This document shows positions 8,875 through 26,325 of a stretch of 40,354 nucleotides of DNA, in pieces. The stretch is from Synergistaceae bacterium (lineage in GTDB: Bacteria; Synergistota; Synergistia; Synergistales; 79-D21): NCBI GenBank assembly GCA_029267465.1, contig JAJUIT010000003.1, forward strand, positions 1-40,354, given 5' to 3'. A program made the translations under genes and the position numbers. Every line of letters starts with the position of its first letter. Positions within the stretch are counted from its first letter, which is position 1. The notes beneath the pieces are model-generated. The model was not told the DNA's origin and did no database searches. It saw only the letters and a list, made by a program, of their open reading frames with translations.

Positions 8875-8880
8875 GCCCGA

Positions 8881-8905
8881 GGGCGCGGGGGGACCTCCCG
8901 CGCCC
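8881..8905 (+). other. Intercistronic GC-rich stem-loop without a U-tract
   Basis: GGGCGCGGG / CCCGCGCCC arms between small subunit 2 and the dehydrogenase. Confidence 0.55.
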
Positions 8906-8941
8906 CGTTGAAACCACCAATTCAAGGGAGGGTAAAGCCGT

Positions 8942-10192: not shown

Positions 10193-10213
10193 GTGCGGCA
10201 TTAGCGGACCCCG

Positions 10214-10244
10214 AGGGGCCCACTGCGCCGCGGTGGGCCCCTTT
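10214..10244 (+). terminator. Stem-loop with a short U-tail (weak terminator or processing site) before citD
   Basis: AGGGGCCCACTGC / GCGGTGGGCCCCT (one G-U pair) followed by TT. Confidence 0.5.
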
Positions 10245-10281
10245 CGCATCGCAGAACGAAAACGCGAAGGAGGTTGCAACC

Positions 10282-10557
10282 ATGAAAACCGCACAGGCCG
10301 GAACCGTGGAATCCATGGACTGCCTTGTCACGGTTTCCGAAGCCGAGCCGGGTACGGGGCTTGTCCTCAACCTGGCCGGATCAAGCGTGGCCCGGTTCTC
10401 GAAGGCCATGGAAAAGGCTGTCCGCGAAACGCTTGAAGGCCTCGGGATCCGGGACCTGGCCGTCAGCGTGCAGGACAACGGGGCCCTGGACCTCGTTCTG
10501 AAGGCTCGGCTCGAAGCCGCGGTCGCCCGGCTGAAAGAAGGGGGCGAATCGGCATGA
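10282..10557 (+). CDS. citD: Citrate (or citramalate-type) lyase acyl carrier protein, gamma subunit
   Basis: AAGGAGG RBS, ATG 10282. AGTVESMD prosthetic-group Ser motif and DNGALDLVLKARLEAA. 91 aa. Confidence 0.9.
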   Translation: MKTAQAGTVESMDCLVTVSEAEPGTGLVLNLAGSSVARFSKAMEKAVRETLEGLGIRDLAVSVQDNGALDLVLKARLEAAVARLKEGGESA

Positions 10558-11441
10558 GGCTCCGCAGAACGATGCTCTACCTTCCCGGGAACAATCCCAA
10601 CATGCTTCTTCGCGGCCATCTTTTCGCTCCCGACGGGCTGATCCTGGATCTGGAAGACGCGGTCGCGGTCCGGGAGAAGGACGCGGCCCGCGTCCTGGTC
10701 AGGGACGTCCTGAAGCGCGGGGAGTTCGGCTCCTGCGAGGTCACCGTCCGAATCAACGGGCTGGACACCGAATACTGGAGAAAAGACCTGGAGATGCTGG
10801 TCCCGCTGGGCAGGCTGGACGGGGTGCGGGCTCCGAAGGTCGACGACGCCGCCACGGTCCGGCTCCTGGACGAAGCGCTCAGCGAGATCGAAGAGAAAGC
10901 CGGGATCGAGGTCGGCAGGATCAAGATTTTCTGCCTGCTCGAAACGGCGAAGGGGATCTTCAACACCTACGACATCGCCACGGCCTCTCCGCGAGTGGCG
11001 GCGGTCATCCCGGGAGGCGAGGACTTGACCGCAGACCTTCGCACAAACCGTTCTCCCGAGGGAACCGAGCTCGAAGGAATCCGCAGGTCCGTGATCGTGG
11101 CCGCCCGTGCTGCGGGCGTTGACGCCCTGGACACGGTGTTCCCGAGGATCACCGACGACGAGGGGCTGAGGCGGGAAACGGAATTCATCAAGCAGCTCGG
11201 CTTTGACGGAAAGAGCGTGATCCATCCGAACCAGATCCCGATTATCCACGACGTCTTCACTCCCACGGAAAAGGAGATCGAGCGGGCGCAGAAGATCGTG
11301 GCGGCCGCGAAGGAAGCCGCAGAACGAGGGCTGGGAGCCGTCCAGGTGGACGGACGGATGGTGGACGCCCCCGTGGTGAAGCGGGCTCTCTTCACGCTCA
11401 CCCGGGCGGGGCTCCTGGAGGAGGGAACCGAGCATGCCTAA
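10554..11441 (+). CDS. citE: Citrate lyase beta subunit (citryl-ACP lyase; HpcH/HpaI family)
   Basis: RRTMLYLPGNNP, ILDLEDAV, VRIN, LETAKG, GFDGKSVIHPNQI, GRMVDAPVV. ATGA overlap with citD. Confidence 0.92.
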   Translation: MRLRRTMLYLPGNNPNMLLRGHLFAPDGLILDLEDAVAVREKDAARVLVRDVLKRGEFGSCEVTVRINGLDTEYWRKDLEMLVPLGRLDGVRAPKVDDAATVRLLDEALSEIEEKAGIEVGRIKIFCLLETAKGIFNTYDIATASPRVAAVIPGGEDLTADLRTNRSPEGTELEGIRRSVIVAARAAGVDALDTVFPRITDDEGLRRETEFIKQLGFDGKSVIHPNQIPIIHDVFTPTEKEIERAQKIVAAAKEAAERGLGAVQVDGRMVDAPVVKRALFTLTRAGLLEEGTEHA

Positions 11442-12984
11442 AAACATCCTTGGACGCGAGATTCCAGAATTCATCGAAGGGTACGGGGAAACCCAACCCT
11501 TCATGGGAGCAAGTGCGCGAAAACCCGAGGGGAACAGGGCCGGCCCGAAACTTCGTGCAACTTTTGGCGACTGCACCAGCAAGGTCATCCCCGACCTGAA
11601 GGCCGCCATCGCCGCTTCCGGCCTGAAGAGCGGCATGACCGTGTCGTTCCACCACCACCTCCGTAACGGCGACTACGTGGTCAACGCCGTCATCGATGCC
11701 TGCGCCGAAATGGGCATCCGGGACCTGACCCTCTTCCCGACCGCCCTCTTCGGGGTTCACAAAAAATTGATCGAACACATCAAGAGCGGGGTCATCCGGC
11801 GGATCATGGGATCGGTCAATGGCCCGATCGGACAGATGGTTTCGGAGGGCGGGATGGACGTCCCCGTGGTCCTTCGCAGTCATGGAGGGCGTCCCAGGGC
11901 TGTCGTCTCGGGGGATGTGAAGATCGACGTGGCCTTCATTGCCGCACCCACCGCCGATGCCTACGGGAACATCTGCGGCTCCCAGGGGAAATCGGCCTGC
12001 GGCTCCCTTGGCTACGCCTTCACGGACGCGATGTACGCCGACTGCGTCGTGGCCGTGACGGACAACCTGGTCCCCTTCCCTGCCGCCCCGGTTTCCATCC
12101 CGCAATACTACGTCGATATCGTTGCCGTCATGGACAGCATCGGCGACCCGGCGGGCATCGTTTCCGGCACGACGAGAATCACCCGGGACCCCCTGCGCCT
12201 CCTGATTTCCAAGTACGCTTCCCGCCTGATCGAGGCCAGCCCCTACTTTAAGGACGGGATCAGCTTCCAGACCGGTGCCGGCGGCATTTCCCTTGCGGTC
12301 ACCGCATTCATGAAGGAAGCCATGAAAAAACGGGGAGTGCGGGGCAGCTTCGGTCTGGGCGGCATCACGGGGTACTTCGTGGACCTGCTCAAGGAAGGCT
12401 ACGTCGAGAAACTCATGGACGTCCAGTCCTTTGACCTCGAGGCCGTGAAATCCATCGCCGAGAACCCCAACCACATCGAGATTTCGGCTGACTGGTACGC
12501 TAACCCCTGGAACGCCGGAACGGCGGTCAACATGCTCGACGTGGTCATCCTGGGCGCCACGGAGATGGACCGGGACTTCAACGTCAACGTCAACACCGAG
12601 GCCGACGGCGCGCTGCTGCACGGGATCGGCGGACACCAGGACACCGCAGCGGGGGCCAAGCTCACCATCATCAGCCAGCCCCTGCTCCGGGGACGCATCC
12701 CCTGCGTGGTGGACAAGGTCTATTCGGTCACGACGCCCGGGGAAGTTGTGGATGCCCTGGTCACCGAGTACGGCGTCACGATCAACCCGCGGAGGCAGGA
12801 CCTCATCGACGCCTGCAAGGAGGCCGGGAACGTTCCCCTGGTCTCCATGGACGAACTCATCGCCCGGGCCCACGAGATGTGCGGACCCGCGGACCCCGTG
12901 GAAACGGAGGACCGCATCATCGGCGTCATCGAGTGGCGGGACGGAACGGTCATCGACGTCGTCCGGCAGTTGAAGAAAAAGTAA
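11434..12984 (+). CDS. citF: Citrate lyase alpha subunit (citrate:acetyl-ACP transferase)
   Basis: SFHHHLRNGD, RSHGGRPRA, CGSLGYA, SFQTGAGG, DVQSFD, GGHQDTA, EWRDGTVIDVV. Confidence 0.95.
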   Translation: MPKNILGREIPEFIEGYGETQPFMGASARKPEGNRAGPKLRATFGDCTSKVIPDLKAAIAASGLKSGMTVSFHHHLRNGDYVVNAVIDACAEMGIRDLTLFPTALFGVHKKLIEHIKSGVIRRIMGSVNGPIGQMVSEGGMDVPVVLRSHGGRPRAVVSGDVKIDVAFIAAPTADAYGNICGSQGKSACGSLGYAFTDAMYADCVVAVTDNLVPFPAAPVSIPQYYVDIVAVMDSIGDPAGIVSGTTRITRDPLRLLISKYASRLIEASPYFKDGISFQTGAGGISLAVTAFMKEAMKKRGVRGSFGLGGITGYFVDLLKEGYVEKLMDVQSFDLEAVKSIAENPNHIEISADWYANPWNAGTAVNMLDVVILGATEMDRDFNVNVNTEADGALLHGIGGHQDTAAGAKLTIISQPLLRGRIPCVVDKVYSVTTPGEVVDALVTEYGVTINPRRQDLIDACKEAGNVPLVSMDELIARAHEMCGPADPVETEDRIIGVIEWRDGTVIDVVRQLKKK

Positions 12985-13015
12985 GGGAAGAAGGAACGGA
13001 ACACCGGTGAAAAAC

Positions 13016-13049
13016 AGGGGGAGGCGGCGAACACCGCCTCCCCTTTCGT
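13016..13049. terminator. Probable bidirectional terminator between citF and the convergent CPBP gene
   Basis: GGGGAGGCGG / CCGCCTCCCC stem, A-run upstream and TTTCGTT downstream. Confidence 0.75.
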
Positions 13050-13583
13050 TCACGGGCGGGGGAAAAACCAGATCGCCCAGAGGTTGCCGAGAAAATGGTA
13101 AAGAATGGACGGAGCGATGTCCCCGTGTCTCAGCCGGAGCGCTCCCATGACCAGCCCCGGGAAGAAGGTGAGCAGGTAGAAGGGGTCGGACCGGAACACC
13201 AGGTGGGAGAGGGCAAAGAGGACCGAAGCGCCCAGGACGGCCAGCAACGGGGAAAGAACCCGGGCCAGCAGCGTCTGGACCCAGCCCCTGAAAAACACTT
13301 CCTCGGAAACCGCGGCAACAAGACCGGCAGAGGCGAAGGACACGACGACCCGGAAGGGCACGACCCGCGGCCAGTCCTGGGAGGGCCAGCCCACGAAAAC
13401 CGCCGCCGTCAGAGGAGCCAGGGTCAGGGTTGACGCGATCAACGACTCGGCGATCGCCCGCCTGCCGGGGCGCAGCGCCAGTCCGTATCGCTCAAGCGGT
13501 TCTTGCCGGGCCATGGCCCAGAGGTAGGGTCCGAACAGCATCACGGCCACGGCGACAAGAGGTCCAAGCATGCCCGGAATCAC
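13050..13583 (-). CDS. CPBP (Abi/CAAX) family glutamic intramembrane protease, myxosortase-like; candidate SYNERG-CTERM sorting enzyme
   Basis: Motifs SEEVFFRGWVQ, LFALSH, TFFPGLVMGALR, ILYHFLGN. Multiple TM segments. GTG start overlaps the stop of the Lgt-like gene. Confidence 0.85.
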   Translation of the reverse strand: MIPGMLGPLVAVAVMLFGPYLWAMARQEPLERYGLALRPGRRAIAESLIASTLTLAPLTAAVFVGWPSQDWPRVVPFRVVVSFASAGLVAAVSEEVFFRGWVQTLLARVLSPLLAVLGASVLFALSHLVFRSDPFYLLTFFPGLVMGALRLRHGDIAPSILYHFLGNLWAIWFFPRP

Positions 13584-14368
13584 CGGTTTTTCCTCCCCTC
13601 CCGGCTGCCAGCCCTGATTCGTGAAAGCGAGAATCCCAGCCAGAGAACGCCGAGCAGGAAAACCCCCAACCCCCAGGCCCTTGCCGAGGGCTCATCAAAA
13701 ACACCGTCCCCCCGGAACGGATCGACGACCAGGCGGACAAGCCCGTATCCGGCAAGAAATCCCGGCCAGAGGACCGCGACAGCAGGTCGTTCTTTTCCTG
13801 CAGAACCCAACTGGTTTTCGGTCCAGGCCAGAAGGGAAAGGAGCAGCACTCCCCCGGCCGATTCGTACAGCTCCGTCGGGTGCCTCAAGATCCCCGGGGG
13901 ATCGAAGGGGAAATGCACCGCCCAGGGCACCGCGGCCAGCTTCCCGTAGCAGCAGCCGTTCAAGAAGCACCCCCAGCGCCCCAGGGCAATGAGAGCCGCG
14001 GCCGGCAGGCTCGCGGCTTCAGCCAGGGACCAGAGGGGAATTTCCCTTTTCCTGAGAACAATCCAGGCCGTAAGCCCCCCGCCAAGGATGGCGGGAAGGG
14101 CGGAAAGTCCTCCTTCCCAGGGGCGCAGCAGCTTTTCCGGGTGCGCCGCGCTGGCCTCCCATTCAACCAGGATGTTTCCCAGGCGCGCCCAAACGAGGAT
14201 CCCCAGGAACCCCCAGAACAGGACAACGCGGACGTCCTCGTCTTCCAGACCGTAAAGCCGGACAGCACGCTTTCGGGTCCAGGTGAGGGCAAGCGCCAGG
14301 ACCAATGCCCAGATCACGGTATAGGTGTCGAGGACTGCGCTCCCCATCCTGAACAGCACTGGATGCAT
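13580..14368 (-). CDS. Prolipoprotein diacylglyceryl transferase (Lgt) family protein, atypical paralog
   Basis: Start reassigned to ATG 14368 (MHPVLF is a typical Lgt start; GGGGGGA RBS). WEGGLS, LGRWGCFLNGCCYG, RHPTELYE, YGLVRLVVDPFRGD. Confidence 0.88.
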   Translation of the reverse strand: MHPVLFRMGSAVLDTYTVIWALVLALALTWTRKRAVRLYGLEDEDVRVVLFWGFLGILVWARLGNILVEWEASAAHPEKLLRPWEGGLSALPAILGGGLTAWIVLRKREIPLWSLAEAASLPAAALIALGRWGCFLNGCCYGKLAAVPWAVHFPFDPPGILRHPTELYESAGGVLLLSLLAWTENQLGSAGKERPAVAVLWPGFLAGYGLVRLVVDPFRGDGVFDEPSARAWGLGVFLLGVLWLGFSLSRIRAGSREGRKNR

Positions 14369-14415
14369 CCGATCCCCCCAGGTCCAGCCGCGGAAAGTTT
14401 CGACCGGTGCGGATA

Positions 14416-14445
14416 TTGTACCCTTTTCCCGGGGAAGGCTATACT
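14416..14445 (+). promoter_or_regulatory. Putative promoter for the subtilase-T2SS operon, in the short divergent region shared with the lgt-like gene
   Basis: TTGTAC-18 bp-TATACT. The same DNA gives TACAAT on the - strand (14420-14415) as a possible -10 for lgt. Confidence 0.45.
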
Positions 14446-14487
14446 GAAACTTGGCAGGGAGTTCAGCTCGCCCCGGGAGGGATCGAT

Positions 14488-16302
14488 TTGCGACACTGTT
14501 CCATGAAAAGATTAACGGCATTGACGGTGGCGGTCGTTTGCCTTGTCTTCACCCTGGCGGCGTGGACCGGCTTTTCGAAAAGCGGAGATGCCGGGGAAAG
14601 ACTTCCCCGGGGAGCCTCGTTCGTCCCGGACGAAATCCTCGTCCAGCTCAAACCCGGCTACCGGCTGGAAACCGTGCTTTCAGCCCTCCCCATGCAGCTT
14701 GTCGCGGAGGAACCCGGGAAACCCGCACCTCGCGGCCTTGCGAGGCTGAAGATCCCGCGGGGAGAGACGGTCATGAACGCGGTATCGCTTCTGAAAGGGA
14801 AAGAAGGCGTCCTCTTCGCCCAGCCCAATTACGTCTACCGGGCCGCCGTTTTCCCGGACGACCCCAGCTACCCCAACCAATGGGCCCTTCCGAAAATCGG
14901 GGCCCCGACCGCCTGGGACCTGGCCACCGGCAGTTCGGACGTCCTCGTCGCCGTCCTCGACACGGGGGTTGACCTCAGCCACCCGGACCTTGCGGGCAAC
15001 CTCTGGACAAACCCGGATGAAATTCCCGGAGACGGCCTGGACAACGACGGCAACGGGTACGTCGACGACGTCCACGGCTGGAACTCGTCCGCCAATTCCG
15101 CGGATGTCCAGGACGATTTCGGGCACGGCACCCACGTCGCCGGAATCATCGGCGCCGTGGGCAACAATGGAACGGGCGTCGCCGGCGTGAACTGGAAAGT
15201 CGGGATCATCGCCGTCAAGGCAAACAAGGGGGACAGCTTCACCACGCTGGATCTCGCCAGGGGAACCGGCTACGTCACGGCCCTCAGGACGGGCAAGGGC
15301 CTGCCGATCGTGGCCGTCAACGCTTCCCTGGGAGCCGCCGTGTCCGAGGATCCCCTGCTGAACCAGGCCATCATAAATGCCGGCGAGGCAGGCATCCTTT
15401 TCGTCGCGGCTGCCGGCAACGACAACAGCGACAACGACCGGACGCCCTTCTACCCCTCCAGCCTGTTCAGGCCGAACGTGCTGTCGGTCGCCGCCACGGA
15501 CGAGAACGATGCCCTCGCGATCTTCAGCCTCCTCACTAACGAGGGCTCGAATTACGGACGACGGACCGTTCACCTTGGAGCCCCCGGCAAGTACATCGAG
15601 AGCACCTACTACTTCATAAGTACAAGCGCCGATACCCCGAGCGGTTATGAGAGACTAAGCGGGACCTCGATGGCGGCACCCCACGTGACCGGCATCCTGG
15701 CCCTCCTGAAGGCCCAGGATCCGAGCCGGGACTGGATCGCCCTGAAAAACAGGGTGCTTTCTACGGGAACCCCCTTGTCCGGCCTATCCTCGAAAACCAT
15801 AACGGGACGGCGCCTCCTGGCGGCCGGGGACGGTGCCTTAGGCGCCCTGACCGGAAGCGGCCAGACGGTGAAGTCCCGCCTTCGGCCCATCCCCGACAGC
15901 CTGGACCTGGAACAGGGAACGTCGCTGGACCTTGCCGCCCTGAACATCTCCGGGGAAGAATCCCTGGGGGACCTCCCCGTTTCGATCACCCGAAACGGAG
16001 CTTCCTACGGGACCCTCACCCTGAGGGACAACGGGACCGGGTTCGACCAGGCAGCGGGAGACGGGATCGCTTCCGCGACCTGGACGGTCCCCTCGTCGGC
16101 GAACAGCACCTACGTCTTCGCCTTCCCGGACGGGAACCTGACGGTGACGGTCGATCTCGCTGAAGAACCCCCCGCCCCGTCCGGCGGAGGCGGAGGGGGC
16201 GGCTGCAGCGCGGCCGGCGGCCTGGGACCGTTTTTCTTTCTCTGCATCCCAGCCGCACTCTTCGCCCTGAAAAGGAAGAAACCCGCGCCGCCTGACCGAT
16301 GA
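14488..16302 (+). CDS. S8 subtilisin-like serine protease with signal peptide, propeptide, C-terminal beta domain and Gly-rich/Cys C-terminal sorting tag (SYNERG-CTERM-like)
   Basis: GGGAGGG RBS before TTG 14488 (alternative ATG 14503). Triad VLDTG, HGTHVAG, GTSMAAPH; oxyanion AAAGN. LRDNG..DQAAGDG motif. Ends SGGGGGGGCSAAGGLGPFFFLCIPAALFALKRKK. Confidence 0.93.
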   Translation: MRHCSMKRLTALTVAVVCLVFTLAAWTGFSKSGDAGERLPRGASFVPDEILVQLKPGYRLETVLSALPMQLVAEEPGKPAPRGLARLKIPRGETVMNAVSLLKGKEGVLFAQPNYVYRAAVFPDDPSYPNQWALPKIGAPTAWDLATGSSDVLVAVLDTGVDLSHPDLAGNLWTNPDEIPGDGLDNDGNGYVDDVHGWNSSANSADVQDDFGHGTHVAGIIGAVGNNGTGVAGVNWKVGIIAVKANKGDSFTTLDLARGTGYVTALRTGKGLPIVAVNASLGAAVSEDPLLNQAIINAGEAGILFVAAAGNDNSDNDRTPFYPSSLFRPNVLSVAATDENDALAIFSLLTNEGSNYGRRTVHLGAPGKYIESTYYFISTSADTPSGYERLSGTSMAAPHVTGILALLKAQDPSRDWIALKNRVLSTGTPLSGLSSKTITGRRLLAAGDGALGALTGSGQTVKSRLRPIPDSLDLEQGTSLDLAALNISGEESLGDLPVSITRNGASYGTLTLRDNGTGFDQAAGDGIASATWTVPSSANSTYVFAFPDGNLTVTVDLAEEPPAPSGGGGGGGCSAAGGLGPFFFLCIPAALFALKRKKPAPPDR

Positions 16303-16913
16303 GCCGCGTGGGACAAAATCCCGGAAAGGGTTTTACCCTGGTCGAGGTTCTCGTGGCCATCGGTTTGATGGGCCTGGTGTCGGCGCTCGCCCTCGGGCCT
16401 TTGGCTGCTTTGACCGTAAGGCTGGAAGCGCTTCGGGCGCAGTATGCCGAAGAAGCGGCCCTTTCGTCGGCGCTTTCAGGCATCGCCGCGGACTGCCGGC
16501 AAATCCTCCCTCAAGGGGGAGATGCCCCCTTCCGGACGATCCGGAGAGAGGTCCTCGGGGGGGGCAGGAAAGATGTTCTCCTGGTCTGGACAGGGGCCCC
16601 CCTTTCCAGAAACCAGCCAGCGGCTACCGAGGTTTTTTCGATCGCCGACACCGGCCCCTTCCGGGAGCCGATCCAGCCGGGGCTGTACCGCTGGACCCTG
16701 GCGGGGACCCTCCCCGCGGACGTCAGCCCGGAGCGCCTGGACCCCAGGAAGGCGACCCTCCTGGTGAAAGGGGCGGATCGCTTTTCCGTCTCGGTGTTTG
16801 ACGGCAAGGAATGGGTCGAAGATTATTCCGGACCGGTTCCCCCGGGAGTGGCGCTTGGAATCTCAAGAAGGGGGGTCGAGGCCTCCCATGTGGACACGGT
16901 GCTTTCCTTCTAG
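16299..16913 (+). CDS. gspJ: Type II secretion minor pseudopilin, GspJ-like
   Basis: Prepilin motif KGFTLVEVLVA. 204 aa. C-terminal W...W....P.GV pattern. Directly upstream of gspK. Confidence 0.75.
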   Translation: MSRVGQNPGKGFTLVEVLVAIGLMGLVSALALGPLAALTVRLEALRAQYAEEAALSSALSGIAADCRQILPQGGDAPFRTIRREVLGGGRKDVLLVWTGAPLSRNQPAATEVFSIADTGPFREPIQPGLYRWTLAGTLPADVSPERLDPRKATLLVKGADRFSVSVFDGKEWVEDYSGPVPPGVALGISRRGVEASHVDTVLSF

Positions 16914-17817
16914 CGGGAGGCGGCAGGGCTTCGTCCTCGTCGCCGTCCTGATGGCTGTGGCTGTGCTCGTGACGGGAGCGCTCGCCTTTGCCTGGTTTTC
17001 CAGGATGGAGGTCCGCAAGGCGGAAGCTCTCGCCTTCTCGCTCGAGGCCCGAAGCCTGGCTGAAACCGCCGTATGGGAAATGAAACGGGGGCTTGTCCTG
17101 GATTCGAACGGCTCGGATTCCCTCCTGGAACCCTGGTTCGGGACCTGGCCCCTTCCGGTGGAGGGAAACATCGCCGTTCTCGTGCGCCTGGTTCCGAAAA
17201 ACGACGCGTTGCCGGTGAATTCGCTTTTTCTCCCGGACGGGATCACCCTGAGGCGCGAGTTGGAGATCCCCTGGCAAAGGCTCTGGGAGGAGCTGAAAAG
17301 ACCGGAGCTCGCCGAAGACCTGCTGGATTTCCTTGACAGGGACACGACCCCGAGAGCCGGGGGCCGCGAAGATCCACCCTTTCTCAACCGGCCCCCTTCT
17401 TCCCTGGAGGAGTTGCGCCTTTTCCCGGGCATTGACGAAACGCTCTACAGCGGGAAGAATGAAAAAATCCCGAAAGGGTTGGAGGATTTCCTGACCGTCC
17501 ACAGCGATGGGCGGATTAACGTCAACGTCGCGGCTCCCGGAGTCCTGGAGCTCCTCGACCCGACCCTCACCCCGGCCGTGGTCCGGGAGATCCTCGAAAG
17601 GAGAAACGGGGACCCCCTGTCCGGATGGAACGACCTCTCCGCTCTTCCGGGATTCCCCGCGGGGCTGGAACCGCGGCTTTCGGGTCTTCTGTCTTTCGCC
17701 AGCTCGCATTTTCTGGCACAGATCGAGGTTCGAAAGGGAAACCTCGTTCGACGTTTCGAGGCCGTGCTTCTCAAAAAGGAAAACCGCTGCACGGTCATCG
17801 CCTGGAAGGAGATGTAG
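16888..17817 (+). CDS. gspK: Type II secretion minor pseudopilin GspK
   Basis: RQGFVLVAVL (no Glu5), LLDFLDRD, SLEELRLFPG, GRINVNVA, SSHF. Start taken at ATG 16888. Confidence 0.88.
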   Translation: MWTRCFPSSGRRQGFVLVAVLMAVAVLVTGALAFAWFSRMEVRKAEALAFSLEARSLAETAVWEMKRGLVLDSNGSDSLLEPWFGTWPLPVEGNIAVLVRLVPKNDALPVNSLFLPDGITLRRELEIPWQRLWEELKRPELAEDLLDFLDRDTTPRAGGREDPPFLNRPPSSLEELRLFPGIDETLYSGKNEKIPKGLEDFLTVHSDGRINVNVAAPGVLELLDPTLTPAVVREILERRNGDPLSGWNDLSALPGFPAGLEPRLSGLLSFASSHFLAQIEVRKGNLVRRFEAVLLKKENRCTVIAWKEM

Positions 17818-17823
17818 CGGGGC

Positions 17824-18906
17824 ATGAAAGCCGAATTGACGGGTGGAAAACTCCCCTGCCGTTTCGTCACCCCGGAAGAAATGTCGTTCCATCCCTTTTC
17901 CTTCCCCTTCAGCGATCCGGCCCGCATCCGCCAGGCCCTTTTGCTGCAGCTCGCTTCCCTGATGGGGGAGGATTCGAAGCGGTTGCACCTGTGCCCGGTG
18001 GTTTTCCAGAGAGAAAAGGAAAGGACCCGGGGAGTTGCTCTGGTCTATCCGGATGACCTGGACAAGGGGCTGGAAAAAGGCGGAGAAACGCGCCTTTTTC
18101 CGGCTCCCCTAGCTTTCGGTGCGGCCCTCGACGGTTCAGGCCTCGGTGTTTGGGCCGACGAAAGCCACGTGTCGGCCGTCCTCTGGCGGGAGGGGATCCC
18201 AATCCTTTACCGCTGCGTTTCGCGGGCCGAGGCCGAACCCCAAGAGGTGATCGAATGGGTTCGGTCCTCTTCGGGAGAATCGGATTTCCCCGTCTTCCTC
18301 TTGGACAGCCGCGTCCTTCCCGATGCGGCGGAGCGCCTGGAGGCAGAGGCCCGGCGGACCTGGGCCGCCTTCCCTGCCCTCGCCCCCCTGGACCTTTCCC
18401 CCCGGCGCATGGAATCAGCCCTGCGGATCGAGCACCTTTCGGCCAACCTCAAACCCGCCCTTTCCGCCGGCCTGGTCCTGGGAATTCTCTTTTTGGCCGC
18501 TTCCGCCCTTTCCGCCCTTTCCGCCCAAAACCGTCTCGAAGCCTATGAAACGGCCTCCATCCGGCTTTACCGCGAGGTCTTCGACCCCACCGGCCCCGTT
18601 CGCGACCCCCTGAGCCAGGCTAAAGCCCGCCTGGCCGCCGTTTCCGGTACGGAGGAAAACGACGGGCTGATCCAGGTTTTCGCCATGCTGGGACGGGCCT
18701 GCCAGAAATCCGGTGAGGGGATCGTTCTCGATACGCTGCGATACTCCCAGAGACAGACGGAATTGACCGGCAAGGGACCATCCGTGGAGGCCGTCCGGGC
18801 CTTCCAACAGGCCCTGGAAGCCGGGGAAACTTCGCTCGAGGATCTCCAGCAGCTTCCCGCGGGACAGTACCGCTTCAAAATCATCGTCAGGGGGAAAAAC
18901 CAGTGA
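17824..18906 (+). CDS. gspL: Type II secretion inner-membrane platform protein GspL
   Basis: Position after gspK. FPFSDPARIRQAL cytoplasmic domain, one TM, LYREVF...VRDPLSQAK, PilN-like periplasmic end. Confidence 0.75.
   Translation: MKAELTGGKLPCRFVTPEEMSFHPFSFPFSDPARIRQALLLQLASLMGEDSKRLHLCPVVFQREKERTRGVALVYPDDLDKGLEKGGETRLFPAPLAFGAALDGSGLGVWADESHVSAVLWREGIPILYRCVSRAEAEPQEVIEWVRSSSGESDFPVFLLDSRVLPDAAERLEAEARRTWAAFPALAPLDLSPRRMESALRIEHLSANLKPALSAGLVLGILFLAASALSALSAQNRLEAYETASIRLYREVFDPTGPVRDPLSQAKARLAAVSGTEENDGLIQVFAMLGRACQKSGEGIVLDTLRYSQRQTELTGKGPSVEAVRAFQQALEAGETSLEDLQQLPAGQYRFKIIVRGKNQ
18501..18526 (+). repeat. In-frame 9-bp tandem repeat (TTCCGCCCT, about 3 copies) in gspL
   Basis: Seen directly; encodes SALSALSA at the end of the TM segment. 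Confidence 0.6.
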
Positions 18907-19418
18907 AGACGCCCTGGAAGGAGCTCATCGCCCGGCTTGGTCCATCCGCTTCCGGGGACGAGGCCATCCAGCGGAGGACGCGGATCTTGGCCATGGCGGT
19001 CCTGGTCTTTTTCCTCTGGGGAACCGGTTTGCTCCTCCTTGACCGTGCCCGTGAAACCGAAAACCGCATCGCCCTGGCGGCGGCCCGATTCTCCAGCCTG
19101 GCGAAAACCTCCCAGGCCTACCGGGCCCTTGTGCCCTCCCGCGCCGCGGGGAAAGCCATCAGCAACCCGGCGGATCCTCTTGCCGCTGCCTCGGAAGCGA
19201 TCGACCGGCTGCAGGTCAAGGATCGCCTGAAAAGCCTTTCAAGCTCCAGCCGAGGGGTTTCCATCGAACTGGAGGGACTCGGACAAAAGGAAACCCTTTC
19301 TTTGATCCGAGAGTTGAAGAAAGCCCGGCTGGCCGTTACCGCCGCCGAGATTCGCGCCCTGCCGCTTGGCGGGAAGAGGAGCCTTTCCGTGACCCTGCTT
19401 TTGGGAGGACAGCCATGA
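18903..19418 (+). CDS. gspM: Type II secretion protein GspM-like
   Basis: 171 aa, single N-terminal TM after RRTR, ferredoxin-like end (VSIELEGL...). Synteny after gspL, GTGA overlap. Confidence 0.65.
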   Translation: MKTPWKELIARLGPSASGDEAIQRRTRILAMAVLVFFLWGTGLLLLDRARETENRIALAAARFSSLAKTSQAYRALVPSRAAGKAISNPADPLAAASEAIDRLQVKDRLKSLSSSSRGVSIELEGLGQKETLSLIRELKKARLAVTAAEIRALPLGGKRSLSVTLLLGGQP

Positions 19419-20017
19419 ACCGCCCTCGGATCTCGGCCATAGGAACCACACTCGCCCTGCTCGCGGCTTTTCTCCTGGGAGCTTTCTGGGCTTTTCCCTG
19501 GGACCGGCTGGCGGAAACGATTCTTGAAGAAGCCTCGCGAAAAGCGACAGCCGCAGGATTTCGTCTGGACCAGGGAACCGTGCGGACGAACTCCCGCTTT
19601 CCCCTTGAGGTTGAGATCCGGGAGGTTTCGCTGGCGAACGTCCTGGGCTCGGTTCGGGCTCCTTCGGTCAAGGTCCGGCTGAAGCCTCTCGTCTTTCTTA
19701 CCCGGATGGCAGCGGGCCTGAAACTCGAAAGCCAGGCAGCCCGGCTCGAGCTTCCAGGGAGCCGACCCCTGGCCCTGACAGGGATCAAGGCTGATTTGGA
19801 TTTCTCCCGTTCGGAAGCCCGGATTCGCACCCTTTCTGTCGGTGGAGACCTGGGCCTTTCAGGAACGCTGACCTGGTCTTTCAACAGAAAACGGCTCTCC
19901 TTCACGGACCTGTCGATCCGGGCCCCCGAGAGCCTGGACCCCGGGTTGAACCTTCTCCGCTTCTCCATCGGCCTCCGGCCCGAAGGAAGCGGTCAGTGGA
20001 GGCTGAGAGTTCCATGA
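19415..20017 (+). CDS. gspN: Type II secretion protein GspN-like
   Basis: N-terminal TM ending FPWDRL, beta-rich periplasmic part (GGDLGLSGTL). Synteny after gspM, ATGA overlap. Confidence 0.6.
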   Translation: MNRPRISAIGTTLALLAAFLLGAFWAFPWDRLAETILEEASRKATAAGFRLDQGTVRTNSRFPLEVEIREVSLANVLGSVRAPSVKVRLKPLVFLTRMAAGLKLESQAARLELPGSRPLALTGIKADLDFSRSEARIRTLSVGGDLGLSGTLTWSFNRKRLSFTDLSIRAPESLDPGLNLLRFSIGLRPEGSGQWRLRVP

Positions 20018-20895
20018 GACTGACTCGGCTTGATTGGGCTTTTCCATGGAGGCTCCTTTACAGGATTTTGGCCGCCTTTCTTTGCGGCGTCCTTTTCGCC
20101 AGGCTCTCCGGCCTGTTTCTGGACGGCTTCGCCGCGAAACGGCGTTTCGAGCGGGCCCTTCGATCCGATCCCGCCGCCGCTCAACTGGAAGACAGAAGCT
20201 CCCTGGAGAACGATCTCGAAGCCTTCCTTGGGCGCAATCCATTCTCTCTTGAAGGAGAGGACCCCTCAACTCGTGGCCTGTCCGGGGAAATCCGGCTCCT
20301 GGGTACCTTCCCTCCCCTGGGAGCCCTTTTCGCGGTGAACGGAAGTACCAGGGCGGTCCTGGCGGGCCAGAAAATCGTGGGCGAAACCCTGAAAAAAATC
20401 GAGGGAACGCGCGCCGTCCTTGAAGGACCCGGCGGGACCCGCGTCCTTGAAGTTCTCTATGCGGGAGTGGGGGGGGACTCCCCCGCTTTTGTTCCGCCGC
20501 CTGCCTTTCCCACGGGAAGGGAACCGCGAGGCGTCTTCGACCCGAAACGGGGAATCCGGGGACCTTCCAACGGGCAGGAGGGAACCATCGAAAGGGACCT
20601 GATCAACAAACTCCTGATGGATCCCTACCAGGAACTGAACCGGGTCCGATTCCGACCGAAGATCGGGGAGGACGGAACCGCCCGGGGAATCGAGGTCCAG
20701 TGGCTTCATAAAGACAGCCTGCTTTCGGCCGTCGGAATCCGTTCCGGGGACGTCATCCATTCGCTGAACGACATTCCCATCCGAACGACCGCGGATATCG
20801 TGAACGCCATCAACTCCCTGCTGAACAGCGACCGGTTCGTTGTGTCCTTCTTCCGGGAAGGGACGGACTCGCAGGTCGCCTACTCGGTAAAATGA
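20014..20895 (+). CDS. gspC: Type II secretion protein GspC with PDZ domain
   Basis: N-terminal TM, HR-like IRLLGT region, PDZ (SLLSAVGIRSGDVIHSLND). ATG 20014 overlaps the gspN stop. Confidence 0.75.
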   Translation: MRLTRLDWAFPWRLLYRILAAFLCGVLFARLSGLFLDGFAAKRRFERALRSDPAAAQLEDRSSLENDLEAFLGRNPFSLEGEDPSTRGLSGEIRLLGTFPPLGALFAVNGSTRAVLAGQKIVGETLKKIEGTRAVLEGPGGTRVLEVLYAGVGGDSPAFVPPPAFPTGREPRGVFDPKRGIRGPSNGQEGTIERDLINKLLMDPYQELNRVRFRPKIGEDGTARGIEVQWLHKDSLLSAVGIRSGDVIHSLNDIPIRTTADIVNAINSLLNSDRFVVSFFREGTDSQVAYSVK

Positions 20896-21247: not shown

Positions 21248-23218
21248 TTGCACCGTAAGCGTCATCCATTCATATCCTTCATCCTGTTTCTCGTCATCGT
21301 GGCTGCCGGAACGTCTGTCGGCGGACCCTGCCGGGGCCAGACCCCCCAGGACGAAGGCAGCCTCGTCGAAGCCGCAAGGGCAATGCGAAACTCGGGATCC
21401 GTCCAGTTCAATTTCCGGGACCTGGATCTCGGCACCTTTATCCGGTTCATGTCAGAGCTGCTGCAGGAGAACATCCTCATCGATCCTACCGTGAAGGGGA
21501 CGGTTACGGTGGTTTCGCCGAGAGCCCTCAGCCTGCCGGAGGCCCGACAGGCGATGCTCTCGGTCCTGGAAATGAACGGACTTTCGCTCCAGCGAACGGG
21601 AACGTACAGCAAGGTCGTTCCAGCATCCAAGGGCCAAAGCACCGATTACGCCGTCCGGAAGGGAAGGGTGGGCCCGGGGTTTGGGGAGAGCTTTGTCACA
21701 CAGATCGTTCCGCTGGATTACGTTTCCGCGTCCTTCGTTGCGGATGGGATCAAAGCCGCCATGAGCGGCGAGGTGGGAGTCGCCCCCATGGCCAGCGGGG
21801 CCAAGGTCCTCCTCATGGGGAAAGCGACGGCGATCCAGAAGGCGCTGGGAGTCATCAACGCCCTCGATGCCGCCGACAGCCTGAAGAACAGCAGGACCGT
21901 CGATATTCGGAACACCACTCCCTCCTCCCTTGCTTCCCAGTTGACAGCGATGGCCAAAGACCCGGCTTCCCCCCTGGCCGGGCTTTTGGCCGTTCCCGAC
22001 GACGCTTCGCGCAAACTCGTCCTGATCGGGGAAAAACGCGTTTTCGGCGAAGCCCAGAAAATCATCCGGGAGCTGGATATCCCTGCCCGCGCAGGGCAGT
22101 ATCACGTGGTCCCGCTGAAAAACACCGACGCAAGAATCATGGCCGAGAAACTGAGCACGATTCTTTCCACCGCCTCAAAGCTTCAGCCTGACCAGAAAGG
22201 GGCCCTCCCCGCCAGCGTTGTGGCGGACCCGGGGACGAACAGCCTGATCTTCGTGGCGGAAGACGCAACCGCGAGAAACATCGAGGCGATCATCCAGAAG
22301 CTCGACATCCAGCCCAAGCAGGTTTTTATCCGGGGCCTCATCGCCGAGGTCAACATGACCCGGCTGAACAACGCCGGGATCGACTGGGCCACCTGGGGAG
22401 GAGCCATCACCGGCGACGCCGTGCTGGCCGGCCAGGCCGCGCTGGGCAACCCGACGGGAATCCCCTCGGAGTTCGTCAACTGGTTCCGGGACCTGACCCG
22501 GGTTGAGGAAAAGGAATACGACAAGAACGGGAACCTGGTCACCACGACGAAATACGAGGGGAAATCGCTCATCTACGCCACGATCAACATGCTGAAGAAA
22601 TACGACGCCATCAACGTGCTATCCATGCCGAGGCTTCTTTGCACCGACAACATGGAAAGCGAGCTGCAGGTCGGCCAGGTGATCCCCCAGCTCAAATCGA
22701 AGCTGGCGGATACGACCAACCCGAGCGCCGTCCAGAACAGCTACGATTACAAGGACACGGGACTCATCCTGAAGGTGACCCCCCACGTGCGAAGCGGAAA
22801 CCTGGTCGCCCTGGAGATCGACCAGACCGTGGAAGACGTTCTCACACCCATGACCGTGAACACCCCCACCACGTCCAAGCGCCAGATCAAGAGCAACGTC
22901 ACCGTCGGGGACGGACAGACCATCGTCCTTGGCGGGCTCATCAAGGAATCCGAAAAGTCCGTCAAGTCGAGGGTTCCAATCCTGTCCTACATCCCTCTCC
23001 TCGGGGACTTCTTCAAGAGCGCGGCAAAATCGCGCGAGAAGATCGACCTGTTGATCTTCCTGACGCCCCAGATCCTCGAGACCCCTGAAGAGGCGAGCCT
23101 TCTGACGAATCAGATTTCCAATTCGTCGGGCGACGTGGAAACCCAGCTGACCGAGATGGAGCGCCTCTATAAACAGAAGAACGACGCCCTTTACAGGCAG
23201 GGAGTGAAAAACCAGTGA
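21248..23218 (+). CDS. gspD: Type II secretion secretin GspD
   Basis: Signal peptide, N0 (FNFRDLDL..FI..IDPTVKGTVTV), N domains, QVFIRGLIAEV, LSMPRLL, YKDTGLILKVTP, DGQTIVLGGLI, VPILSYIPLLG. Confidence 0.95.
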   Translation: MHRKRHPFISFILFLVIVAAGTSVGGPCRGQTPQDEGSLVEAARAMRNSGSVQFNFRDLDLGTFIRFMSELLQENILIDPTVKGTVTVVSPRALSLPEARQAMLSVLEMNGLSLQRTGTYSKVVPASKGQSTDYAVRKGRVGPGFGESFVTQIVPLDYVSASFVADGIKAAMSGEVGVAPMASGAKVLLMGKATAIQKALGVINALDAADSLKNSRTVDIRNTTPSSLASQLTAMAKDPASPLAGLLAVPDDASRKLVLIGEKRVFGEAQKIIRELDIPARAGQYHVVPLKNTDARIMAEKLSTILSTASKLQPDQKGALPASVVADPGTNSLIFVAEDATARNIEAIIQKLDIQPKQVFIRGLIAEVNMTRLNNAGIDWATWGGAITGDAVLAGQAALGNPTGIPSEFVNWFRDLTRVEEKEYDKNGNLVTTTKYEGKSLIYATINMLKKYDAINVLSMPRLLCTDNMESELQVGQVIPQLKSKLADTTNPSAVQNSYDYKDTGLILKVTPHVRSGNLVALEIDQTVEDVLTPMTVNTPTTSKRQIKSNVTVGDGQTIVLGGLIKESEKSVKSRVPILSYIPLLGDFFKSAAKSREKIDLLIFLTPQILETPEEASLLTNQISNSSGDVETQLTEMERLYKQKNDALYRQGVKNQ

Positions 23219-24696
23219 GCGAAACGGGCTTCGACCCCGAGGAAATCCTTTCTCTCATCCCGGAAAACCTGAGCCTCGACACCCTCCGGGGGGCCGGAGT
23301 CCTTCCGCTGCGCAGGGAGGGAGACTCCCTGGTGCTGGCCGTCTCGTCCCTGGAAACCTACGGCAACGCCCAGCTCCTCTCCCGGTCCTTCGAAGGGAAA
23401 ATCCGGATCGAGATCGCCGATCCCGCCCTGATGAACGGGCTTTTTGACCGCCTGTACACCCTTCGGAGCCGGATCGCCTCGGACGACCTCGAAGCCATCG
23501 AAGGAGTCCTGGACCTGGACACGGTGGCCCGCGAGGACATCCAGAGCGACTCGGTCTCCGCACCGGTGATCCGCCTCGTGAACAGCCTTCTCTTTGAAGC
23601 CGTGAAGGAGAGGGCGACGGATATCCATGTCGAACCCTTCGAGGACCGCTGCGAGATCAGGTTCCGGGTGGACGGCGTCCTCCACGAAAAGCTGAGCCTT
23701 CCGAAAACCCACCAGGCCCCCCTGACGACCCGGATCAAGGTCATGGCCCGCATGGACATCTCTGAACGGTTCTCTCCACAGGACGGGCGGATCGGCATAT
23801 CCGTGGGCGGCCGCTCCGTGGACATCCGGGTCGGATCGGTGCCCACCCGGCATGGAGAAAGGCTAGCTCTCAGGCTCCTGGACAAGAGACAGGGGCTTTT
23901 AACGCTGGACCAGCTCGGCATGCCGGAAAAAAGCAGGGCGGCCCTGGAGGGAATGGTTTCAAGGCCGTACGGGATGATCCTCCTGACCGGCCCCACGGGG
24001 TCTGGAAAGACGACGACCCTTTACGCCATCCTGCAAAAACTCGCTCGGCCCGAGGTGAACATCATCACCGTCGAAGACCCGATCGAATACGACCTGCCGG
24101 GTGTCGGGCAAATCCAGGTGAACGAAAAGGCCGGGGTCACGTTTGCCTCCGCCCTCAGGGCCATCCTGAGACAGGATCCAGACATCATCATGGTGGGCGA
24201 AATGCGGGATTTCGAAACCGCTCACATGGGAGTCCAGGCTTCCCTGACGGGCCATCTCGTGCTGTCGACCCTCCATACCAACGACGCCCCCAGCGCAGTC
24301 GTAAGGCTGGCGGACATGGGAGTGGAATCCTACCTGGTGGCAGGCTCACTCCTGGGAGTCGTGGCCCAGCGCCTTGTCCGGCGCACCTGCCCATCCTGCT
24401 CGGCCGAGGCTGAAGCCCCTCCCCCCTTTCGGAAAGCGGGGATCGAAACCGTCCAAAGGGGCACCGGCTGCGAGCAATGCCTGGGAACCGGTTATTATGG
24501 CCGCTTCGGCCTTTATGAACTGCTGGTGATGGACGACTCCCTCAGGGAAGCCGTTTCGAAAGGCGCCTCCTCTTCAAAAATCCGGGAACTCGCCAGGGAA
24601 AGGGGATTCAAAACCCTCTGGGAGGCGGGACTGAAAAGGGTACGGCAGGGCCTGACTACCCCCGAGGAACTGATCCGGGCGGTCGGGGAGGCTTAA
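23215..24696 (+). CDS. gspE: Type II secretion ATPase GspE
   Basis: ATDIHVEP, PQDGRI, Walker A GPTGSGKTTT, TVEDPIE, LRQDPDIIMVGEMRD, TGHLVLSTLHTN, CxxC...CxxC. Confidence 0.95.
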   Translation: MSETGFDPEEILSLIPENLSLDTLRGAGVLPLRREGDSLVLAVSSLETYGNAQLLSRSFEGKIRIEIADPALMNGLFDRLYTLRSRIASDDLEAIEGVLDLDTVAREDIQSDSVSAPVIRLVNSLLFEAVKERATDIHVEPFEDRCEIRFRVDGVLHEKLSLPKTHQAPLTTRIKVMARMDISERFSPQDGRIGISVGGRSVDIRVGSVPTRHGERLALRLLDKRQGLLTLDQLGMPEKSRAALEGMVSRPYGMILLTGPTGSGKTTTLYAILQKLARPEVNIITVEDPIEYDLPGVGQIQVNEKAGVTFASALRAILRQDPDIIMVGEMRDFETAHMGVQASLTGHLVLSTLHTNDAPSAVVRLADMGVESYLVAGSLLGVVAQRLVRRTCPSCSAEAEAPPPFRKAGIETVQRGTGCEQCLGTGYYGRFGLYELLVMDDSLREAVSKGASSSKIRELARERGFKTLWEAGLKRVRQGLTTPEELIRAVGEA

Positions 24697-24700
24697 ACCG

Positions 24701-25861
24701 ATGCCGAGATTTCGCTACACAGCATACGACGTTCAGGGGAAGCCGGTGACGGGAGAGCTGGAAGGAATCAGCGAGGGCTCCGCGGTGCAGGCCCTTCGGA
24801 AGGAGGGGCTGGTTCCCGTGGAGCTTCGCGTGCTGGCGGACCGGCACGGGGCTTCCCGAAAAAGGGGGGAACAGGTTCCTCTCGAAGACCATTTGCTCTT
24901 CTGCAGGAGCCTTGCCGGTTACCTGAGAGGCGGCTTAACCCTGAGCCATGTCCTGGTCCTTTTGGGGAAACAGTCCCCGAGCGAAAGCCTGCGGGAACTT
25001 TACAGCGGCCTGAAGGCGGAAGTCGAGGCGGGAAAGAGCCTGGGAGCGGCGATGCGGGAATCCCGACGATTCAGGGGGGACCTGGTTGGGATGGTGGAAT
25101 CCGGGGAACGGAGCGGATCCCTTCCCCAGGTCCTGGACAGAGCCGCCCGCCTTTACCGGCTGGAAATCAGCCTGCGCAGGCGGGTGCGAAGCGCGCTCAC
25201 CTACCCCCTCGTCATGTTCGGGGTCGGAACGGTCGTGGTGGTTTTCCTTCTGACCTATGTCGTTCCGAAGCTTTCGGCCCTTTTTGCCGACATGGGAGAA
25301 AGCCTTCCGCTTCCAACAAGGCTTCTGCTCTGGCTGTCTGCCTTTCTAAAATCCGCAGGAATCCCTCTCCTCCTCGCAGCGACGGCATTCCTGCTATTCC
25401 TGGGACGAAAAAGATCCCTGCTTTCGAGACTCCCGTTCAGGGGCTTGAAGGAACGCATCACCTTATCCCTGGTCTTTTCGCACCTTGCGACTCTCCTGGA
25501 TTGCGGGATCCCTCTTGTCCAGGCCCTTTCAATGGTCGCCCCGATGGATCCGGCCCCGGGAAGATGGGATTCGGTCTCGGAGAGAATCCGGAAAGGGTAC
25601 CGGCTTGGACAGGCTCTCCACGACGAAGGTTCCTTCCCGGAAGACGCCGTCTACATCGTCCAGGTGGGAGAAGCCGGTGGGGAGCTGTCCGAAGCCCTCC
25701 AGCAGGTAGCGGACAACAGCTGGGAAATCGCCGAAAACCGAATGGCGCGGCTGGCTGACCTCGTCGAACCGGCAATGGTCCTCGCCCTTGGCGCGATCGT
25801 GGGATTTGTCGTCGTTGCCATCCTCCTGCCGATCTTCGATCTGTCGTCTCTCATCCGGTAA
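24701..25861 (+). CDS. gspF: Type II secretion inner-membrane protein GspF
   Basis: MPRFRYTAYD, GERSGSL, SALTYP, LPLPTR, GEAGGEL, EP...AILLPIF. Confidence 0.93.
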   Translation: MPRFRYTAYDVQGKPVTGELEGISEGSAVQALRKEGLVPVELRVLADRHGASRKRGEQVPLEDHLLFCRSLAGYLRGGLTLSHVLVLLGKQSPSESLRELYSGLKAEVEAGKSLGAAMRESRRFRGDLVGMVESGERSGSLPQVLDRAARLYRLEISLRRRVRSALTYPLVMFGVGTVVVVFLLTYVVPKLSALFADMGESLPLPTRLLLWLSAFLKSAGIPLLLAATAFLLFLGRKRSLLSRLPFRGLKERITLSLVFSHLATLLDCGIPLVQALSMVAPMDPAPGRWDSVSERIRKGYRLGQALHDEGSFPEDAVYIVQVGEAGGELSEALQQVADNSWEIAENRMARLADLVEPAMVLALGAIVGFVVVAILLPIFDLSSLIR

Positions 25862-25896
25862 AACGAATGAAAAACAAAACCAAGGAGGTCCTTCTT

Positions 25897-26325
25897 GTGA
25901 GAGAAAAACGCAGAAGCGGTTTCACCCTTGTGGAGATTCTCGTCGTGGTGGTGATCCTGGGGCTGCTGGCCACCCTGGTGGTCCCCCGGGTTGTGGGAAG
26001 GGGAGAAGAAGCCAAGCGAACCGCGGCCCTCGTGCAGATCCGGTCAATCGAGCAGGCCCTGGAACTCTACAAGCTCGATAACGGCTTCTACCCCTCCACG
26101 GAGCAGGGACTCGAGGCCCTCGTGACGCGGCCTTCAGGAACGCCTGAACCGCAGAATTACCGGGACGGCGGCTACATGAAGAAGATCCCCCTGGATCCCT
26201 GGGGGCGGCCGTACATCTACCGCTGCCCGGGAGAACACGGGGAAACGGACATCCTCTCCCTCGGCCCGGACGGAGAGGAAGGCGGGGAAGGAAAGAACCG
26301 GGACATTACCAACTGGGAGGAATGA
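25897..26325 (+). CDS. gspG: Type II secretion major pseudopilin GspG
   Basis: AAGGAGG RBS before GTG 25897. GFTLVEILVVVVILGLLA, ALELYKLDNGFYPSTEQGLEALV, DPWGRPYIY, SLGPDG, DITNW. Confidence 0.96.
   Translation: MREKRRSGFTLVEILVVVVILGLLATLVVPRVVGRGEEAKRTAALVQIRSIEQALELYKLDNGFYPSTEQGLEALVTRPSGTPEPQNYRDGGYMKKIPLDPWGRPYIYRCPGEHGETDILSLGPDGEEGGEGKNRDITNWEE

Follow-up and report, generated by a model that had tools for sequence, protein, structure and literature searches.

A Cys-type Lgt gene coupled to the myxosortase gene mrtS beside a type II secretion operon in a Synergistales genus, and its possible role at C-terminal sorting cysteines

A stretch of 40,354 nucleotides from the genome of a Synergistaceae bacterium (assembly GCA_029267465.1, contig JAJUIT010000003.1, positions 1 to 40,354; hereafter the window) carries a gene for a homolog of the diacylglyceryl transferase Lgt. 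The gene lies in a 13-kb cluster (13050-26325) that also comprises the myxosortase gene mrtS, a gene for an S8 protease with a cysteine-containing tail, and a full operon for a type II secretion system (T2SS). The genome of the window is 93.6% complete, with a contamination of 2.58%. The lgt gene (13580..14368, minus strand) and mrtS (13050..13583, minus strand) are transcribed divergently from the S8 protease gene and the T2SS operon. The GTG start codon of mrtS and the TGA stop codon of lgt overlap by 4 nt, upstream of which lies a purine-rich stretch, and each of the four genus members possessing the two genes keeps this overlap, of the form [GT]TGA. Directly 3' of mrtS, a terminator-like, G+C-rich hairpin followed by a T run (13018..13043, minus strand; an 11-pair stem with nine G-C pairs), which is a consensus match only, is predicted to close a two-gene lgt-mrtS unit. 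According to the map of open reading frames (ORFs), the starts of lgt and, as far as it can be placed, of the S8 protease gene are separated by a divergent intergenic region at 14369..14502 (no strand assigned), and a scan of positions 12900-14700 for sigma-70-like promoters found none.

The translated product of lgt is a 262-aa Cys-type homolog with the N-terminus MHPVLF. Its frame extends to an ATG at 14521; homologs, however, begin M-x-PVLF, which favors the shorter start at 14368. The protein is a clear member of the Lgt family. It matches the Pfam LGT family PF01790 with 140.8 bits (E 5.7e-41), over the gathering score of 24.9, and scores 107.7 bits against the NCBIfam equivalog TIGR00544, under the cut-off of 118.9. 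With an AlphaFold2 model (predicted local distance difference test score, pLDDT, 92.2; predicted template modeling score, pTM, 0.88) as query, a fold search of the PDB returned Escherichia coli Lgt (5azb) as its sole match (E 9.9e-10; TM-scores 0.75 and 0.70), and the protein as modeled has the seven-transmembrane Lgt fold. Diacylglyceryl transfer to a cysteine thiol is its predicted activity. A PF01790 search of the whole genome gave one match, the window gene.

The adjoining mrtS, present in single copy in the genome, encodes a Synerg-CTERM glutamic intramembrane protease of the CPBP/Rce1-like type. It scores 216.7 bits against NF040589 (cut-off 130) and also matches PF02517, and its translation contains the motifs EExxxR, FxxxH and HxxxN. 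The accessible part of the Haft preprint describes MrtS as a protease of the CPBP/Rce1 type whose predicted function is the processing of Synerg-CTERM signals. On the opposite strand, a subtilisin-like S8 protease with an N-terminal prodomain is encoded (14407..16302, plus strand; PF00082, 169.6 bits; PF22148 also matched), whose likely start, MKRLTALTV..., opens a signal-peptide-like N-terminus. Its C-terminus reads GGGGGGG-C-SAAGGLGPFFFLCIPAALFAL-KRKKPAPPDR: seven glycines, then Cys-Ser, a Pro-containing membrane helix and a basic KRKK tail, with the cysteine just before the helix. The original prediction, made from the window sequence before this analysis, had invoked a C-terminal cysteine lying N-terminal to a transmembrane helix, and the tail of this neighboring protein bears it out. 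Five proteins of the genome, including the S8 protease, share the pattern of GG-C-S, a transmembrane segment with proline and a K/R tail. The profile TIGR04564 finds two proteins over its cut-off (contigs C43 and C60) and one just under it (C42). The S8 tail itself is not matched by this profile; its only hits are weak (E 0.037 and 1.7) and are to two families of MYXO-CTERM-anchored proteins. From its tail, the S8 protease is regarded as a candidate substrate of the sorting system.

The T2SS operon follows on the same strand as the protease gene. Genes of the Synergistota type, namely gspJ-like, gspK, gspL, gspM, gspN and gspC, occupy 16299..20895 (plus strand; _SYNERG models), and gspD (the secretin), gspE, gspF and gspG occupy 21248..26325 (plus strand). 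GspL_SYNERG (NF041617) is matched with 256 bits against a cut-off of 150, and TIGR02517 (400.7 bits) and TIGR01710 (192.6 bits) are both over cut-off in the gspD-gspG stretch. Several scores fall below their cut-offs, including those for GspK (102/130), GspM (104.9/120), GspN (102.2/140), GspC (183.8/200), GspE (582.3/630) and GspF (274.3/424); the SYNERG models of GspM, GspN and GspC are nonetheless the best hits for their window genes.

Other lineages, too, have lgt linked to the sorting machinery. In genome G051 of genus g10, lgt opens the T2SS operon and is immediately followed by gspJ-like, K, L, M, N, C, D, E and F, the other end of the operon being formed by gspG and mrtS; the coordinates place lgt within 4 kb of gspL in six of seven g10 genomes. 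In a genome of another order (G077), the genes form the string yidC-jag-lgt-pseudopilin-gspK-gspL-like on a single strand, with an overlap between lgt and the pseudopilin ORF. A third arrangement, in G036, consists of mrtS, a gene of unknown function for a 380-aa protein, a DsbD-like gene, lgt and then htrA. As a separate observation on this last locus (contig C6, 2145-3997), the 380-aa protein has no family match, and the second intervening product, a 235-aa membrane protein, shows a weak resemblance (E 1.3e-7 with NF001419) to the transmembrane domain of DsbD/CcdA; it would be of interest if a carrier of thiol reductant stood next to a pair acting in cysteine lipidation. Linkage between mrtS and the T2SS also recurs outside genera g1 and g10, since in genus g18 (G038, contig C16; G142, contig C61; G035, contig C22) about 2 kb separate mrtS from gspL_SYNERG, and both have the same orientation.

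The phyletic pattern within the order Synergistales was tabulated over 144 same-order genomes, with seven genomes of other orders or classes set aside and a sub-cut-off fragment in G049 counted as absent; these genomes are relatives, and the figures therefore overstate independence. Lgt and MrtS are both present in 100 genomes, Lgt alone in 8, MrtS alone in 1 and neither in 35. The corresponding numbers are 101, 7, 1 and 35 for Lgt and GspL_SYNERG, 75, 33, 2 and 34 for Lgt and LspA, and 74, 34, 12 and 24 for Lgt and FlgH. The presence of Lgt in the order thus tracks that of MrtS better than that of LspA. Three of the eight genomes with Lgt but not MrtS possess GspL and are 86-94% complete. Lgt and MrtS occur without LspA in 26 genomes (four of g1, five of g10, eight of g20, four of family f10 and five singles, of which the single genomes may represent assembly gaps), and Lgt and LspA occur without MrtS in one genome only, which is 86% complete. 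Among the 30 genera itemised, 20 have Lgt and MrtS, one (g15) has Lgt alone, none has MrtS alone, and the rest have neither. FlgH was also considered as the reason for Lgt retention and was ruled out, its agreement with Lgt being only 0.68 and FlgH being kept in 12 Lgt-less genomes.

LspA itself was not found in the genus of the window: PF01252 had no match in any of six genomes, namely the window genome and five congeners. A further search with an order-specific profile, built from 11 Synergistales LspA sequences, likewise gave nothing significant in the window genome (best E 0.2), G060, G086 or G144, and in G121 of genus g20 its best match reached only E 0.03, in a 310-aa frame. A census of lipobox-like N-termini found 17 with cysteine among 2028 ORFs of the window genome, with 74, 131 and 115 for the Ser, Ala and Gly controls. 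In the first 800 kb of the LspA-bearing genome G033, 7 of 575 were found, in the same ratio to these controls, and the census therefore does not tell the window genome from this LspA-bearing relative. As an isolated observation, one same-order genome alone, G115, has LspA while lacking both Lgt and MrtS; the LspA in question (contig C84, 32150-32566) scores 137 bits, far above the 47-82 usual in the order, which suggests a foreign or contaminant gene.

The residues of the window protein were compared with those of E. coli Lgt by alignment to 5azb, read against the motif strings of Mao 2016 (PMC4728403, accessible in part). The substitutions on which the original prediction had dwelt were confirmed by this alignment. 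WEGGLSALPA replaces WDGGMSFHGG of E. coli, changing His103 to Leu and Gly104 to Pro and leaving L-P-A-I at the position of the H103GGL motif. Instead of GRxGNFxNxExxG, the window protein has the Cys-type signature GRWGCFLNGCCYG, aligned to E. coli GRLGNFINGELWG, in which Arg143 and Gly154 are unchanged and cysteine stands at the positions of Asn146 and Glu151. In VRLVVDPFR (FRIIVEFFR in E. coli), the second key arginine, Arg239, is kept and Glu243 has become Asp. As had also been claimed, HPxxLYE is retained (RHPTELYE vs RHPSQLYE), and Tyr26 is kept as well; Arg143, Arg239, Tyr26 and Gly154 are invariant among the sampled relatives. Besides these substitutions, the window protein differs from the E. 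coli enzyme (5azb/5azc) in its shorter head domain, with about 27 residues from the signature to HPxxLYE vs about 50, in its score below the TIGR00544 cut-off, and in having no LspA partner found in its genus.

Published work gives these positions different weights. In the accessible part of Mao 2016, the HGGL motif is proposed as the lipobox-peptide binding site or a part of it, and E151 binds the phosphatidylglycerol head group (PMC4728403). H103 and N146 are described as essential in E. coli (PMC4728403; PMC13251419, likewise accessible in part), and E151 and E243 as non-essential, the E151A and E243A variants being functional (PMC13251419). The latter source also records natural variation in distant Lgts (N146 to C, E151 to C or D, and H103 to Y, W or F) and partial function in E. 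coli of the N146C Lgt of Leptospira interrogans. That enzyme and MSMEG_5408 of Mycobacterium smegmatis, as presented there, share the signature GR.GC...GCC.G with the window protein.

Comparison across the phylum indicates how far the variant is special. Among 151 Synergistota genomes, 116 have a PF01790 match (115 over cut-off), in single copy except in two. Fifty Synergistota Lgts were aligned, comprising 43 from the same order, Synergistales, one from a sister order (G077) and six from other classes. GR.GC...GCC.G is present and His103 absent in all 43 same-order sequences and in G077, LspA-bearing genomes included; each of the six from other classes has the canonical strings, GRWGNF.N.EAFG and GGLAIHG. 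In a FastTree phylogeny of 133 Lgts, 42 of the 43 same-order sequences and G077 form one clade (support 98) that tracks family labels, the exception being the long-branched G112. Because the window gene is single copy in its genome and nested within the clade of the order, it is the single, vertically inherited Lgt orthologue of Synergistales. A dedicated paralogue was ruled out by the one PF01790 match in this genome, the count of one match in almost every Lgt-bearing genome across the order, and the vertical clade. The original prediction had read the altered residues as marking a specialised enzyme and had named their presence in relatives' housekeeping Lgts as the observation that would overturn it; with the same substitutions in 43 of 43 same-order Lgts, that residue-based case is not supported.

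The Cys-type signature is also ordinary outside the order. A scan for GC[FL]LNGCC[YF] in one genome per prokaryote species gave, among the matches listed, at least 600 stretches, of which 598 were confirmed, and the phyla of the matches listed include Bacillota, Verrucomicrobiota, Omnitrophota, Planctomycetota, Armatimonadota, WOR-3 and others. In five genomes of other phyla tested, a Cys-type Lgt is the sole Lgt in three (G151, G153 and G155), LspA is present in all five, and no myxosortase-family match over cut-off occurs in any; the window genome, in contrast, has mrtS. As a marker of a new acceptor, which is how the original prediction had taken it, the signature was rejected: it is widespread, serves as sole Lgt beside LspA and without a myxosortase, and corresponds to variants already published. 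One position, that of H103, sets the order apart. In 83 non-Synergistota Cys-type Lgts, it is occupied by Y in 56, H in 15 and Q in 6, followed by GG in 66 and GA in 14, so that [HY]GG is mostly kept; in the 43 Synergistales Lgts, in contrast, His is found in none, and the next residues are PA in 19 and GG in 7. Judged from these alignments, loss of the [HY]GG(L/F) motif is the only order-specific feature of the Synergistales Lgt. The argument from altered residues is accordingly weak, and the genomic context is the real finding. A literature search on Synergistetes or Synergistota with Lgt or LspA gave nothing relevant among the matches listed, and the string 'Synergist' does not occur in PMC13251419.

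The interpretation favored here, whose chances are judged to be about even, is that the single Lgt of the order lipidates the CTERM cysteine before MrtS cleaves. It is preferred because of the operon with its 4-nt overlap, the one-cluster layout, the recurring linkages, the co-occurrence of Lgt with MrtS, the lack of a detected LspA in the genus, the Cys tail common to five proteins of the genome and the degenerate [HY]GG motif. Lgt has the fold of a phosphatidylglycerol-type diacylglyceryl transferase with both catalytic arginines kept, and in this genus its gene has moved beside mrtS and become translationally coupled to it. Substrates such as the S8 protease would be exported by Sec, and their C-terminal helix would anchor in the inner membrane, with the invariant cysteine at the periplasmic face. 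Lgt would then move a diacylglyceryl group onto the cysteine thiol of what may be called an 'inverted lipobox', here GG-C-S, after which MrtS would remove the helix distal to the lipidated cysteine and the adjoining T2SS would take the lipid-anchored protein to the cell surface. Where a few N-terminal lipobox proteins are present, Lgt probably serves these too. What is observed here are the identities of the genes, the junction of lgt with mrtS, the layout of the cluster and the pattern across genomes; lipid transfer to the C-terminal cysteine, the donor of the lipid and the sequence of the steps are inferred. Of the non-lipobox acceptor proposed in the original prediction, the link to C-terminal-Cys proteins is thus supported by the mrtS overlap, the protease and T2SS neighbors and the co-occurrence, and the residue argument and the specialised status are given up. 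A bolder version is doubtful, though conceivable: that across Synergistales the conserved function for which Lgt is selected is lipidation of the Synerg-CTERM cysteine, for MrtS cleavage and T2SS surface display, that the N-terminal LspA pathway plays a secondary part (at least four lineages with Lgt and MrtS gave no LspA match), that the order-wide loss of the HGGL-type motif is the adaptation by which one Lgt accepts a helix of inverted topology, and that Lgt would thereby be the transferase for all Cys-type C-terminal sorting signals.

Several observations weigh against lipidation of the CTERM cysteine by Lgt as its role. The S8 tail gives no TIGR04564 match at E values up to 10. In most sampled Synergistales, the usual setting of lgt is the string yidC-jag-lgt-htrA, unlinked to mrtS and found both with and without LspA, including in the LspA-less g20 and f10; such a neighborhood is of the housekeeping kind and speaks against a dedicated role. 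Since Lgt, MrtS and LspA are all present in 74 genomes, the co-occurrence could come from an entire envelope module having been lost at once. In genus g15 (three genomes, each 99% complete), Lgt is retained within the string yidC-jag-lgt-htrA, and MrtS, LspA, GspL_SYNERG and any TIGR04564 match over cut-off are lacking; Lgt therefore has some MrtS-independent function. The absence of LspA rests on four genus members together, the window genome being 93.6% complete. Moreover, a classical role for Lgt is possible because this genome encodes FlgH with the lipobox-like N-terminus FAGG-C-SA and a few other proteins with such N-termini, namely an NMT1-type binding protein, an AAT-family protein, a serpin and an alpha/beta hydrolase. 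In a rival account, Lgt is an ordinary housekeeping enzyme acting on N-terminal lipobox prolipoproteins only, and its position beside mrtS and the T2SS is an accident of rearrangement or a generic co-regulation of envelope genes (e.g., for T2SS lipoprotein components or substrates). This account is the main rival but is considered rather unlikely. It agrees with the status of the gene as sole Lgt within the vertical clade of the order, with the commonest neighborhood, with the lipobox-like N-termini, FlgH included, with retention in g15, and with the Cys-type sole Lgts of LspA-bearing genomes in other phyla. It does not readily accommodate the lack of LspA in six of six genus members, where the order-specific profile is also negative, the persistence of Lgt in four or more lineages with no LspA found, in every case along with MrtS, the 4-nt coupling to mrtS in four of four congeners, or the separate lgt-T2SS linkages in g10 and G077. 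In addition, lipobox N-termini stand at the level of the chance controls (17/2028, in a census of little power), and FlgH is kept in twelve Lgt-less genomes.

The strong form of the original prediction, that the altered residues have retuned Lgt to act on C-terminal Cys tails only, is improbable. The order-wide loss of the HGGL-type motif proposed for the lipobox peptide, the lack of detected LspA in this genus and the absence of enrichment of lipobox-like N-termini (again, from a weak census) are in line with it, but the same substitutions occur in 75 same-order genomes with both Lgt and LspA, the FlgH of the window genome retains a lipobox-like cysteine, g15 has the same type of Lgt without a CTERM system, and the Cys-type signature is ordinary elsewhere. 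Least probable is that the Lgt fold is kept with another donor, another or non-protein acceptor, or weak catalysis, as a result of the loss of His103, Asn146 and Glu151. The essentiality of H103 and N146 in E. coli (as given in the accessible parts of PMC4728403 and PMC13251419), the binding of the phosphatidylglycerol head group by E151, and the TIGR00544 score below cut-off would fit such altered chemistry. Against it stand the retention of R143, R239, Y26 and G154, single-copy conservation across the order, the many LspA-bearing bacteria whose only Lgt is of the Cys type, and the partly functional N146C enzyme of L. interrogans (PMC13251419).

Lipidation of a CTERM cysteine by Lgt, as favored here, would extend systems that are already described. 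In the accessible part of Wall/Haft 2025 (PMC11980579), the cognate acyl-transferase of Cys-CTERM signals 'remains unidentified', Lgt is called 'a leading acyl-transferase candidate' since MrtX processes TraA in E. coli, and lipidation by Lgt before cleavage is already hypothesised for MYXO-CTERM; in the Haft preprint, Lgt occurs 0 times. The window resembles the published Synerg-CTERM/MrtS system in its MrtS over cut-off, its tripartite Cys tails and the Synergistota-type T2SS alongside. The available descriptions of that system identify no lipid transferase and treat Lgt as a candidate for MYXO-CTERM only, whereas here lgt is physically coupled to mrtS. The proposed sequence would also parallel CAAX processing, in which a eukaryotic or archaeal prenyltransferase lipidates a near-C-terminal cysteine and a CPBP/Rce1-type protease then cuts distally (PMC11980579, in the part accessible). 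It would differ in that an Lgt-fold diacylglycerol transferase is unrelated to prenyltransferases and in that the tail is a membrane helix, not an aaX tripeptide. Neither the idea of Lgt as a CTERM lipidator nor the Cys-type residues are new. What is new is that lgt is coupled at the operon level to the gene of a myxosortase, that both lie in one cluster with a candidate substrate and the T2SS, and that Lgt is retained independently of LspA and in linkage with MrtS. The window offers a compact natural test case, with the lgt-mrtS unit, a Cys-tailed candidate substrate and the T2SS proposed to export it all within 13 kb, in a genus in which LspA was not found. If the favored interpretation is true, Lgt would no longer be purely an enzyme of N-terminal lipoproteins, which would bear on Lgt inhibitors and on surface-protein anchoring in diderm bacteria.

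Some further observations were made alongside these results. The FlgH (L-ring) gene of the window genome lies on contig C175 (16073-16759), and its product, ...LFLFAGG-C-SAESLW, contains the string GG-C-SA that is also seen in the C-terminal tails. FlgH is missing from all five congeners, so that this contig may be foreign (the contamination being 2.58%) or the species may differ from its congeners. No PF01790 match was found in 35 of the 151 Synergistota genomes, several of them single-contig assemblies of 99-100% completeness (e.g., G004, G013, G020 and G081), and Lgt, MrtS and LspA are all absent in 34 same-order genomes; diderm lineages without any Lgt or LspA merit attention. In about 35 genomes, many of family f3 and mostly of g5 and its relatives, the GspL_SYNERG match contains one in-frame stop (TGA, TAA or TAG, varying), as if gspL were split or the model extended over two neighboring ORFs. 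Within the window, shortly past the T2SS operon and beyond an oppositely oriented transporter gene, a DEAH-box helicase (27379-29655, plus strand) matches the 'helicase/secretion neighborhood' model TIGR03817 with 609.8 bits, below the cut-off of 874. Upstream of the cluster (5267-12981, plus strand) lie two pairs of aconitase/homoaconitase-type large and small subunits, an isocitrate/homoisocitrate-type dehydrogenase and the citrate lyase genes citE/citF, a group of metabolic genes that appears to be unrelated to the lgt-mrtS finding.

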